A DNA stretch of 64,000 bases, taken from NCBI GenBank assembly GCA_964608595.1, contig CAZSOU010000001.1, forward strand, positions 6,716-70,715. Direction: 5' to 3'. The stretch is from an uncultured Rhodanobacteraceae bacterium. GTDB taxonomy: Bacteria > Pseudomonadota > Gammaproteobacteria > Xanthomonadales > Rhodanobacteraceae. Every line of letters begins with the position of its first letter. Position 1 is the stretch's first letter. The notes under the pieces were generated by a model, which saw only the letters and a program-made list of their open reading frames with translations, ran no database searches and was not told the DNA's origin. Of this stretch, positions 51,106 to 56,876 are shown one piece after another. The translations under genes were made by a program, and so were the position numbers.

Positions 51106-51111
51106 AGCGGC

Positions 51112-51240
51112 ATCATCCGTGTCCGCGGTGAGCCTCGGCCGCGTCCATGAAGATGGAACCCAAGCCTTCTTCAGCCAACAAGCGCTCGACGAATGCGAGG
51201 TCGGTTCGCAGTATTGCACCGCGTAGCTGCGTTAGCGCAT
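51112..51240 (-). pseudogene. Remnant of a second vgrG (internal ~35-40 codons, frameshifted)
   Basis: 51132-51231 aligns by hand with 56284-56384 inside the intact vgrG (about 12 mismatches and a 1-nt deletion in ~100 nt). It encodes RSYAVQY..(frameshift)..DLAFVERLLAEEGLG versus RSYTVQYRETDLAFVERLLAEEGLG. Confidence 0.65.
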
Positions 51241-51247
51241 GCCGACC

Positions 51248-53926: not shown

Positions 53927-53939
53927 CTCGCTTATCTCC

Positions 53940-56876
53940 TTATGCTCTGCCCAACAAACGGATGCTCAACTCTTCCATGCCCTGTCCGTTTTGTACGGTG
54001 GCCCACCCGTCACTATCGGTGACACCCCGAATTTTCGCGCCGTCAGCACGTACGTACTCGTAATGGTGGTTCACCGCCGGTGTTTTGCCGTCACGCAAGG
54101 TCACACGCACTCGCTCATCAAACTTCGGCTCACGCCAACCATTCATCTCGCGTGACAAGTGCGTTCCACCCACCATCTTGTGATTGCCCGCCTTGATGCT
54201 CAGTTTGCCGGGCGCACCAAAGGTGATGTTGCCGTTTTCGATGTGGATGTAGGCGCCTTGTTCGGTGGCGATACGGATGACCTTTTTCGCGGCCAAGTCG
54301 ATGGCCGCGTCGGTGGAAACGAGTTCAAGGCCGTCTTTGCTGCGCAGCTTCAGCGTGTCGTGCTGGGCCTGGACATCCATTTCACCCCGACCGGCCGTGA
54401 GGTTGAGGCCGACGCCTTTGGCGCCTTGCGCGCCGGCGACGAGGCCGATGCCCTGGTTGGCGTGCAGGCGCAGTTGTTCGGCGACACCGAGGTTGATGTG
54501 CCGGCCGCTGCCGAGATTCAGGGTTTCGCCGGCGCTGTGATGCAGCGACTGGCCGGCGATGCTGACGATGCCGGCGCGACCGGCGAGTGTGGTGACGGCA
54601 TCGCGGCTGTGCGGGATGGCGCCGCCCGGTTCGGCGTCGGCATAGTTGTCCCCCGTGACTGTGTGGGTGACGCTTTCGCGGAGTGCCTTGAGCGGCGCGG
54701 CCTTGTCGCTCAGTGCGCTTTGATCGCTTACGATGGTGCCTTCATGCCCGGCCAGCGGCATCGTCTGGTGTGTCCTGGCCGCGCCGCTCAGCGTTTGCGC
54801 CAGTTGGACGTGCTGGTTGAGCAGCGCACCGACGGCATTGGCGTCGGCGGCGGGCTCGTGGGTGTTGCCCGCCCATGTGGTCAGCAACAGACCGCGTCGG
54901 CCGCGTATGCTGCCGTAACCATCGCTTCGCAGTTCCAGCCCGATGCCGCGGAAGCTGCCTCGGTAGTTGTCTTGCTGATGGACGAGGTGGCCCAGGTTGA
55001 GCTGACTGGCGGCCTGGCTGCTGGCAAACTGGATGCGGCCTTGCCGGTCCGTGTCGTCGAACACCAGTTGATTGTGACCGGCGCCGTCGAAACCCCGGGT
55101 CTTGATGCCGGACAAGGCGGCCGCGTTGGCGTGGGCGGCGTTGCCCGCGCCCTGGCCGTGCCAGGCGGGGCTGTGACCGCCGCCGAGATTGCCCTGCGCG
55201 CTGGCGCGTTGATCGTTGGCCTGGGCATAGGCGCTGCCCTCGGGCGTGGCTTCACCCGCACCGGGCGTGGGCGCGATGCCGGCTTCACCGTAGCCGTTGT
55301 ACAACGCGCCGGTGATCACGGGACGATCAATGTCCCCGTCGAGAAAACTCACCAGCACTTCCTGGCCGATGCGCGGCAGAAACTGCGCACCATGGCCCTG
55401 ACCAGCGTAGCGTTGCACGCAGCGCAGCCAGCAACTGGCGCCGTGCTCCATCCAGTGGAAGCGGACCTTCAGGCGGCCACGTTTGTCGGTGTGGAGCGGA
55501 CCGGCGGCGCCCGGCGTGGTTTCGCCTTCCGGACCGACGACGATGGCGGTTTGCGTGCCCGGCGCGGTCGAACGCGGGTTCAGACGCGTGCCATGCTCGT
55601 CTGCCAACACCGGACGCCATGGGCGTGCGGCGTCGACCGCTTCGAAGTGTTGTGCGTAGCCGGTGGTTTCGGCGCGCGCCCACAGCGACATGATGGCGGC
55701 GCGGGTATCGGCCGTTGCCCATGACTCGACATCGGCAGGGGCGTTGAAAACCGCCTCGCCCAGATGATCGCGCGCGGCGTGCCGTATCGACGCCGGCAGA
55801 TTGTTGATGCCTGCTTCCGTGAGCCGCGTCCACAGGAAGCTTTCGGGCATCGCCATCTCCGCGACCTGCAGAGGTGATTGCGCCACGCGAAATCGCGTAC
55901 CGACACGTGCGCCACGCACGCTGCCGCGACCGACCCAGTGTTGCTGCAACGTTTCATGCGCCTCGGCGGCGAGTTGCGCGTAATGCGCCGCTTCGCGGCT
56001 GTCGGCAAACGCGTACGCGCCGACAGGATCGTAACTTTCCCCGCCCTTTCCGCCTTGCACCGGCACCTGCGCACTGATGGCGGCCATGGCCTTGTAGTCC
56101 CAGCTGAGTTGCGTGACGGATGAGGGCCCCATGACACCTTCCCGACCCAGCGCCTGGATGGCATCGCTGGCCTCCGTGGCGGCGGCACGATGGAAGCGAA
56201 TGCCCTCCGGGCTCCCGGCCGAGCGCATATCTTCGGGGAGCTGTCCGCTGTCGGCGAAGATCACCAGTGTGTGTCCGGACGGCGCCTCGGCGTCGTCCAC
56301 GAAGGTGTAACCCAGACCTTCTTCGGCCAACAGGCGCTCGACGAATGCGAGATCGGTTTCGCGGTATTGCACCGTGTAGCTGCGCGGACGCACCGCAGCG
56401 AGCCATTGGCGCGCGTCGGACGTGATTTTCCAGGCTCCGTAGTCACGATAGTCGGCAAACACTTCCGCGACGATATCGAGCACGGAGCGTTCCTGGAAAA
56501 TGCGGCTGTGGCGGCCTTCGCCCAGCAGCCACAACCACGGCACCAGCATCAGACGGTAGCGCGCCAGGCTGCCATCGGCGCCCAGCAAACGAGCTTCGCG
56601 CACCAGACCACTGTGTGGTGTGCGCGTGCCGTCGGCTTGCGTGGTATGCAGGGTGAGCGTCTGACCCAACATGGCGTCCAGCGACAGGTCGGCCTCGTTG
56701 GACAAGGCATCGATGGTGATTCCCCCGCACGTGGATAGTGCTGATTCCGCATACCAGCGCTCGACCTGCAGTGCGTCGAACAGCGGCGGACCTTCGAGAG
56801 TGTACAGGCGGTTCGCATCGGACAAACGTGCCGGCGCCAGATGCGCGAAAGCACTCGCAAGCATGGGCGTGTTCAT
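53940..56876 (-). CDS. vgrG: Type VI secretion spike protein VgrG with DUF2345-type and TTR-like C-terminal extension (978 aa)
   Basis: ATG 56876 preceded by GGGAGGAG. gp27-like region RSYTVQYRETDLAFVERLLAEEGLGY. gp5/OB region PRIGQEVLVSFLDGDIDRPVITGALYNG. Beta-helix and DUF2345-like repeats. C-terminal end RVTLRDGKTPAVNHHYEYVRADGAKIRGVTDSDGWATV. Confidence 0.9.
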   Translation of the reverse strand: MNTPMLASAFAHLAPARLSDANRLYTLEGPPLFDALQVERWYAESALSTCGGITIDALSNEADLSLDAMLGQTLTLHTTQADGTRTPHSGLVREARLLGADGSLARYRLMLVPWLWLLGEGRHSRIFQERSVLDIVAEVFADYRDYGAWKITSDARQWLAAVRPRSYTVQYRETDLAFVERLLAEEGLGYTFVDDAEAPSGHTLVIFADSGQLPEDMRSAGSPEGIRFHRAAATEASDAIQALGREGVMGPSSVTQLSWDYKAMAAISAQVPVQGGKGGESYDPVGAYAFADSREAAHYAQLAAEAHETLQQHWVGRGSVRGARVGTRFRVAQSPLQVAEMAMPESFLWTRLTEAGINNLPASIRHAARDHLGEAVFNAPADVESWATADTRAAIMSLWARAETTGYAQHFEAVDAARPWRPVLADEHGTRLNPRSTAPGTQTAIVVGPEGETTPGAAGPLHTDKRGRLKVRFHWMEHGASCWLRCVQRYAGQGHGAQFLPRIGQEVLVSFLDGDIDRPVITGALYNGYGEAGIAPTPGAGEATPEGSAYAQANDQRASAQGNLGGGHSPAWHGQGAGNAAHANAAALSGIKTRGFDGAGHNQLVFDDTDRQGRIQFASSQAASQLNLGHLVHQQDNYRGSFRGIGLELRSDGYGSIRGRRGLLLTTWAGNTHEPAADANAVGALLNQHVQLAQTLSGAARTHQTMPLAGHEGTIVSDQSALSDKAAPLKALRESVTHTVTGDNYADAEPGGAIPHSRDAVTTLAGRAGIVSIAGQSLHHSAGETLNLGSGRHINLGVAEQLRLHANQGIGLVAGAQGAKGVGLNLTAGRGEMDVQAQHDTLKLRSKDGLELVSTDAAIDLAAKKVIRIATEQGAYIHIENGNITFGAPGKLSIKAGNHKMVGGTHLSREMNGWREPKFDERVRVTLRDGKTPAVNHHYEYVRADGAKIRGVTDSDGWATVQNGQGMEELSIRLLGRA

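Follow-up and report, generated by a model that had tools for sequence, protein, structure and literature searches.

What is encoded by the three genes packed between 51106 and 56876 in a 64,000-nucleotide (nt) stretch of DNA from an uncultured Rhodanobacteraceae bacterium (contig CAZSOU010000001.1; the whole stretch is hereafter called the window, and its numbering is used throughout), and how did they come to lie between unrelated genes? An earlier note on this DNA had described them as a vgrG island apart from any type VI secretion system (T6SS) core genes, carrying a lipase-type effector that lacks a signal together with an immunity protein that is exported, and had proposed a new or poorly described effector–immunity system. 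The description stands on homology, gene order and genomic context. The claim of novelty does not, as the pair falls within Tle4/Tli4, a family already described, and its layout is that of the Pseudomonas aeruginosa vgrG2a island. We read the region, with a probability of about 0.8, as a satellite T6SS island of ~6 kb in which a VgrG spike with a TTR-like tail carries a Tle4 lipase and is followed by a periplasmic Tli4. The genes and protein segments on which this reading rests are the following:

53940..56876, minus strand: vgrG (tssI), 978 amino acids (aa), comprising gp27-like hub, gp5 OB-fold, T6SS_Vgr, DUF2345 and a C-terminal tail
53943..54116, minus strand: TTR-like C-terminal domain of VgrG, residues ~921–978, proposed docking site for Tle4
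52313..53926, minus strand: tle4-family phospholipase/esterase effector, 537 aa
51248..52300, minus strand: tli4-family immunity protein, 350 aa from ATG
52223..52300, minus strand: predicted signal peptide of Tli4, residues 1–26, MKNMPTWRRAVFGVVIFGLGMQGTCA, recognised by eye

The effector matches 4R1D_A, the P. aeruginosa Tle4 (TplE, PA1510), in a phmmer search at E = 1.4e-59, with query residues 8–535 aligned to chain residues 13–560. Its Pfam matches are weak and generic (PGAP1 (PF07819), LCAT and DUF676), the one to PGAP1 being short (residues 217–261) and scoring 29.0 bits against a gathering cutoff of 24.3. Tle4 has been described with a TxSxG motif, a Ser-Asp-His triad and a PGAP1-like domain (PMC9846239). 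The triad predicted here comprises Ser248 (within SHSMGG), Asp480 (within GDGTVP) and His510, and all three residues are invariant in 119 homologues. At the first position of the nucleophile motif, where the window protein reads SHSMG and PAO1 Tle4 reads THSMG, 91/119 homologues have T and 27/119 have S, the SHSMG-type variant. The N-terminus, MSEETTRLIPTT, is devoid of a hydrophobic stretch, and no signal peptide is seen in it by eye. More than 2000 homologues were found, the nearest named ones, at 53–59% identity, in Dyella, Fulvimonas and Rhodanobacter; their public names are generic (for example, 'esterase/lipase family protein'), and NCBIfam holds no model for either the effector or the immunity protein. 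Homology identifies the effector as a member of the Tle4 family with intact catalytic residues and, putatively, lipase or phospholipase activity.

The downstream protein carries the Pfam domain Tli4_C (PF18426), matched at E = 1.2e-14 and 55.2 bits (cutoff 25) over residues 193–350 and profile positions 6–161 of 161. A match to P. aeruginosa Tli4 (TplEi, PA1509; PDB 5H7Y/4R1D_B) at E ~2e-4 covers the C-terminal half only. An AlphaFold2 model was built from a 7-sequence alignment, six relatives having been obtained in a word-indexed search, and when the PDB was searched with it in Foldseek, TplEi/Tli4 entries made up the four best matches (E 8e-13 to 2e-10, probability 1.00), with alignments of 341–361 columns but low template modelling (TM) scores of 0.37–0.43; the model itself is weak, with a mean predicted local distance difference test (pLDDT) of 57.6. 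By eye, the N-terminus opens with a basic n-region, followed by a hydrophobic stretch of 12 residues and a c-region ending in ...QGTCA↓MND; at the cleavage position, the closest relatives have AFA↓M and more distant homologues the lipobox LAGC. With this n/h/c layout, residues 1–26 are predicted to form a signal peptide for export to the periplasm. Because the effector matches Tle4 over its full length and its partner has both a Tli4_C domain and Tli4 as its best fold matches, the pair is best assigned to Tle4/Tli4 and not to a new family; the downstream protein is, by homology, a Tli4-family member that would bind and neutralise Tle4. A lipase with its foldase, or another secreted esterase outside T6SS biology, had also been considered for the two genes and is rejected in view of the full-length Tle4 match, the specific Tli4 matches and the linkage to vgrG.

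The spike protein has the full set of hub, OB-fold, Vgr and DUF2345 domains, with Pfam matches to Phage_GPD (2.5e-69), Phage_base_V (2.6e-19), T6SS_Vgr (8.5e-33) and DUF2345 (7.1e-37), an NCBIfam match to TIGR03361 (6.4e-85) and PDB matches to VgrG1. No Pfam family covers the region that follows DUF2345. A profile made from the last ~108 residues of the window VgrG and of seven relatives (8 tails) matches VgrG1 of enteroaggregative Escherichia coli (EAEC; 6SJL residues 732–817, E = 3e-11) and residues 10–61 of 6H56, the TTR part at the N-terminus of the effector domain from P. aeruginosa VgrG2b (E = 9.7e-6). The alignments place at the end of VgrG, after DUF2345, a TTR-like domain that has homologues in EAEC VgrG1 and VgrG2b.

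The distribution of this tail was surveyed in 76 vgrG loci from other genomes and in loci obtained by protein look-up. Only 8 other loci carry it (10 when the duplicate Logan contigs L002 and L003 are counted), with a tle4 homologue directly downstream in 7/8; conversely, the tail is present in 7/7 other loci where tle4 adjoins vgrG. Rhodanobacter glycinis MO64 (L006, 9746–15948) has a VgrG that is 64% identical and tail-less, its gene being followed by genes for a DUF4123 adaptor, a weakly matching DUF3304 protein and a Tle1-like lipase. When species-representative genomes were searched with the window VgrG, the best match, at 70% identity, came from a metagenome-assembled genome (MAG) of the Rhodanobacteraceae. 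In the window, there is no open reading frame (ORF) in the 13-nt spacer between vgrG and tle4, and Pfam scans of the window ORFs detected no adaptor of the DUF4123, DUF1795 or DUF2169 families. The EAEC VgrG1–Tle1 complex reportedly involves direct contact. This Sci-1 pair (6SJL/6SK0) also has DUF2345 followed by a TTR-like C-terminus homologous to the window tail, and it sets a precedent for the loading of a Tle lipase on a VgrG C-terminus with no adaptor, although its cargo, Tle1 (DUF2235), is of another lipase family. In PAO1, VgrG2a is needed for Tle4-dependent killing, the nearly identical spike region of VgrG2b being no substitute, and VgrG2a's C-terminal TTR domain is predicted to load Tle4 (PMC7376260). 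Given the co-occurrence of tail and tle4, the absence of adaptors and the PAO1 VgrG2a data, docking of Tle4 on the TTR-like tail without an adaptor would be the best-supported loading mechanism.

The closest known system is the vgrG2a island of P. aeruginosa PAO1 (hcpA-vgrG2a-tle4-tli4-PAAR3, PA1512–PA1508; structures 4R1D and 5H7Y/5H7Z), a satellite island that contains the tle4-tli4 pair of that strain (PMC7376260). The two share the order vgrG, tle4, tli4, with no core genes in 64 kb here, full-length homology of the effectors with the same triad, the Tli4_C domain and, putatively, the Tli4 fold, a TTR-type VgrG end and the lack of an adaptor gene. They differ in that the window island has no hcp or PAAR gene, and in that the sequence match of the window Tli4 to its P. 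aeruginosa counterpart is confined to the C-terminal domain. Nearer relatives carry vgrG, tle4 and tli4 in an identical order, and their VgrG has this tail too. In Dyella acidiphila (GCA_014863405.1) a complete T6SS cluster surrounds the unit, in the order TssM, PAAR, TssA, vgrG-tle4-tli4, TssL, K, J, B, C, Hcp, E, F, and in Rhodanobacter glycinis (CP042807.1) it adjoins tssM and tssA. Identities to these units are 61–65% for VgrG and 53–59% for Tle4, and the cargo has a low G+C content (GC) in both; unlike these units, which stand among or beside tss genes, the window island is isolated between TPR and glycosyltransferase genes. A second orphan island occurs, at a different chromosomal site, in an uncultured Rhodanobacteraceae MAG (L007, 3994–9752), where vgrG-tle4-tli4 sits between dnaX and a tgpA-like transglutaminase gene. 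A survey of Xanthomonadales reported that orphan vgrGs in genomes with a group 4 T6SS adjoin Tle1-, Tle3- and Tle4-like genes (Bayer-Santos et al. 2019, PMC6653060). The window island resembles those in having an orphan vgrG with a Tle4-like gene beside it, and differs from them in coming from an uncultured lineage that the survey left out; the islands in that survey have not been characterised experimentally.

The reading of the letters bears out most of what had been noted on gene layout and context. All three ORFs lie on the same strand, tightly packed with spacers of 13 nt (vgrG to effector) and 12 nt (effector to immunity gene), as the earlier note had it, and the vgrG stop TAA (53942–53940) does open the Shine–Dalgarno sequence of tle4. 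The effector stop TGA (52315–52313), said to overlap the AGGTG in front of the immunity gene (52310–52306), is in fact separated from it by two bases. The start of vgrG is preceded by GGGAGGAG, and the protein collection lists VgrG in its 978-aa form for the source contig. Probably, all three genes are translated together, as a single operon. The placement of the island between unrelated housekeeping genes is likewise upheld, with the glycosyltransferase gene (48991–51105, plus strand) on one side and the TPR gene and then relA on the other; the TPR/glycosyltransferase intergenic site that holds the island is convergent. The tli4 stop lies 142 nt from the glycosyltransferase stop, and this gap, though within the range given in the earlier note, contains a frameshifted fragment of vgrG that the note had overlooked. 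A consensus scan of 50900–57300 for promoters and terminators gave matches not above shuffled expectation, with none 5' of vgrG. The further features of the island and its edges are listed here:

53936..53942, minus strand: TAAGGAG, vgrG stop fused with the tle4 Shine–Dalgarno sequence, read directly from the sequence
51119..51240, minus strand: vgrG pseudo-fragment at the distal island edge, ~41 codons with one frameshift
56877..57122, minus strand: intergenic region 5' of vgrG, 246 nt, presumed promoter region and proximal insertion edge

Genes for the secretion machinery were looked for in two ways. In the window, 43 coding-like ORFs were called, and a Pfam scan of the 40 outside the island returned no Tss, Hcp or PAAR family. 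The TssA, B, C, E, F, J, K, L, M, Hcp and PAAR sequences of the Dyella acidiphila cluster were used as tblastn queries against all six frames, and in these searches of the 64 kb, with 11 core queries, only vgrG, the effector gene, the immunity gene and the vgrG fragment were matched. The earlier statement that no tss, hcp, PAAR or adaptor gene occurs in the 64 kb holds by Pfam scans and, for the tss, hcp and PAAR genes, also by six-frame tblastn. The remaining window ORFs are of the housekeeping kind and include pgi, zwf, aconitase, scpAB, murB, mutL, an amiC-like gene and PBP1B, besides the GT2+GT1 glycosyltransferase, the TPR protein, relA and hrpA.

How the island came to its site can be approached by comparison with relatives. 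For the RelA encoded in the window, no protein on record exceeds 79% identity, and those of named Rhodanobacter, Dyella, Fulvimonas and Oleiagrimonas reach 67–70%, which makes the source an uncultured Rhodanobacteraceae-like lineage. One contig with a 79% identical RelA (L083, GCA_964496295.1) is colinear with window 41425–64000 except at the island. Its gene order is hrpA-relA-TPR-glycosyltransferase-PBP1B, with a spacer of 61 nt between the TPR and glycosyltransferase genes that represents the empty site; 134 nt of L083 (7498–7632) correspond to 6.07 kb of the window (51098–57169), and synteny breaks within 56877..57122, upstream of vgrG. On this comparison, the island would be either an insertion at the convergent intergenic site or, alternatively, what a deletion has removed from the L083 relative. 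Directly after the tli4 stop, the pseudo-fragment of ~120 nt at 51119–51240 equals VgrG residues ~162–205 and is a direct repeat of 56271–56384, 83–93% identical to the resident vgrG; the Dyella VgrG matches it by tblastn in two frames, and its translation reads RSYAVQY / TDLAFVERLLAEEGLGSIFMDAAEA. The fragment could be a scar left by recombination, or what remains of a second vgrG. Neither a classical genomic island nor an insertion mediated by an insertion sequence is supported: Pfam scans of the window ORFs found no integrase, transposase or phage family, Rfam and ARAGORN found only a tRNA-Arg at 21064, 30 kb from the island, and no boundary repeats other than the vgrG fragment occur at the island.

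Within the island, the VgrG itself appears to be composite. Residues 1–920 are closest to L007 (63–85% identity), while residues 921–978 are closest to the Dyella protein (L004; 76% versus 50% and 43%). At residue ~920, the GC at third codon positions falls from ~0.8 to 0.62 (54117–56876 versus 53943–54116), and the closest Tle4 among the compared loci is that of Dyella as well. Since the nearest relative switches at the point where this value drops, and since Dyella also has the closest Tle4, the pattern points to recombination at the DUF2345/TTR boundary in which tail and cargo were transferred together. A second junction lies in the neighbouring glycosyltransferase gene. The island itself recurs at 100% identity in three further sequencing runs. 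Logan contigs of SRR8648366 and SRR8648368 (L001, L002) match the window at 100% identity between 55380 and ~50650, a stretch that covers the island and the last 450–500 nt of the glycosyltransferase gene; the remainder of that gene is only ~75% identical in these contigs. The apparent cause is a sharp recombination breakpoint at ~50650, close to where the glycosyltransferase's C-terminal GT1 domain begins; alternatively, the metagenome assembly may be chimeric at this point.

The low GC of the cargo, which the earlier note had taken for a mark of foreign origin, needs a different interpretation. The values as such are real (effector 0.549, immunity gene 0.509, vgrG 0.653), with 0.60–0.65 for the flanks; along the sequence, GC is 0.49–0.57 over 51000–54250 versus 0.60–0.69 on both sides. 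Orthologous cargo inside the T6SS core clusters of relatives, however, is also low in GC (0.54–0.57), and because it is equally low there, the low GC is a property of the cassette family and not a specific mark of the present insertion. As a sign of recent foreign origin of this island it is rejected on the same ground. A more far-reaching interpretation, which we put forward tentatively and would not yet bet on, is that of a recently mobile cassette without mobility genes: TTR tail, tle4 and tli4 would be swapped among vgrG cores at the DUF2345/TTR boundary, islands would be dropped into intergenic sites and leave vgrG fragments behind as scars or homology anchors, and the diverged Tli4 would represent a new immunity-specificity class within Tle4/Tli4. 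Such a history is compatible with the empty site, with the 25%-diverged glycosyltransferase segment beside an identical island, with the switch at residue ~920 and with the pseudo-fragment.

What the satellite island would do for its host can be put as follows. Tle4, lacking a signal peptide, would dock on the VgrG tail with no adaptor, and a T6SS encoded elsewhere in the genome would deliver it to the periplasm of Gram-negative neighbours, where it would degrade membrane phospholipids; exported Tli4 would bind and block Tle4 in the periplasm of the producer and its kin and so protect them. The enzymatic activity, the VgrG–Tle4 contact, the neutralisation by Tli4 and the presence of a T6SS core in the genome are parts of this scheme that we infer. 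Several observations weigh against it. With no T6SS core, hcp or PAAR gene in 64 kb, delivery by a T6SS is unproven, and no sigma-70-like promoter was detected by the consensus scan in 56877..57122. The Tli4 model is of low confidence (pLDDT 57.6, TM 0.37–0.43), and the window Tli4 is only 28–30% identical to the Tli4s that accompany the closest Tle4 relatives (L004, L005 and L007). These are 43–56% identical to each other, and the Tle4s of all loci 53–64%; in an exhaustive Tli4 search, 79 clusters (formed at 50% identity) reached E<=1e-3, of which 13 reached E<=1e-30, and a single cluster exceeds 50% identity. The immunity protein appears to have diverged much faster than the toxin. Lastly, the tail-bearing VgrG of Salinisphaera sp. 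Q1T1-3 (L008, 9965–18382) carries a VasX_N-like cargo of 984 aa instead of Tle4, and because this tail precedes another kind of cargo, the tail is not strictly Tle4-specific. As a separate observation on that Salinisphaera locus, the VasX_N-like gene is followed by genes for two paralogous proteins (351 and 333 aa) that match no Pfam family and are candidates for an immunity role.

The absence of core genes from the 64 kb is also what one would expect of a stranded relic, that is, of an island in a genome with no working T6SS, its genes silent, decaying or kept for immunity only. The vgrG pseudo-fragment beside the island shows past decay at the locus, and the lack of a promoter-like site upstream of vgrG in the consensus scan points the same way. 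We nevertheless consider a relic improbable: the three ORFs are intact, with catalytic and domain residues conserved, spacing and Shine–Dalgarno sequences are preserved, the island is identical in three other sequencing runs, and it is usual in T6SS-positive Xanthomonadales, as in P. aeruginosa, for satellite vgrG islands to lie far from the core (PMC6653060, PMC7376260). That the effector's main targets are eukaryotic cells, and not competing bacteria, is more improbable still. Such a role is suggested by the homology to TplE, a trans-kingdom effector with a eukaryotic PGAP1-like domain (PMC9846239, PMC5611513), yet a tightly linked, exported cognate immunity gene is the hallmark of antibacterial toxins that act in the periplasm, and a eukaryotic role would come on top of the antibacterial one and not replace it. 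A new effector–immunity family that merely resembles generic alpha/beta hydrolases, to which the missing NCBIfam models, the generic public names and the single Tli4 cluster above 50% identity might have pointed, is refuted by the full-length Tle4 match at E 1.4e-59, the Tli4_C match above cutoff, Tli4 as the best fold match and the >2000 effector homologues.

Two further ORFs of the window, both far from the island, deserve mention. At 32954–33565 (minus strand), an Ivy-family protein (inhibitor of vertebrate lysozyme; Pfam E 1.4e-22) is encoded, a periplasmic lysozyme inhibitor that, in an environmental bacterium such as this, might protect against muramidase toxins. At 2327–4807 (plus strand), an 826-aa ORF, the start codon of which is uncertain, combines a full phosphoglucose isomerase domain (residues 109–593) with a ROK (glucokinase-like) region (616–751) and may represent a PGI-ROK fusion.

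The satellite vgrG-tle4-tli4 island reveals no new toxin, immunity mechanism or delivery principle. With it, the known Tle4/Tli4 pairs gain one from an uncultured Rhodanobacteraceae-like lineage whose RelA has no match above 79% identity on record, and it will be of use in cataloguing effector diversity and in studying the movement of effector cassettes. What is mildly interesting beyond this is the diverged immunity protein and the clean evidence for cassette exchange: with a filled and an empty site, a recombination junction between spike and tail and a vgrG scar, the locus offers a natural example of the modularity of T6SS cargo.

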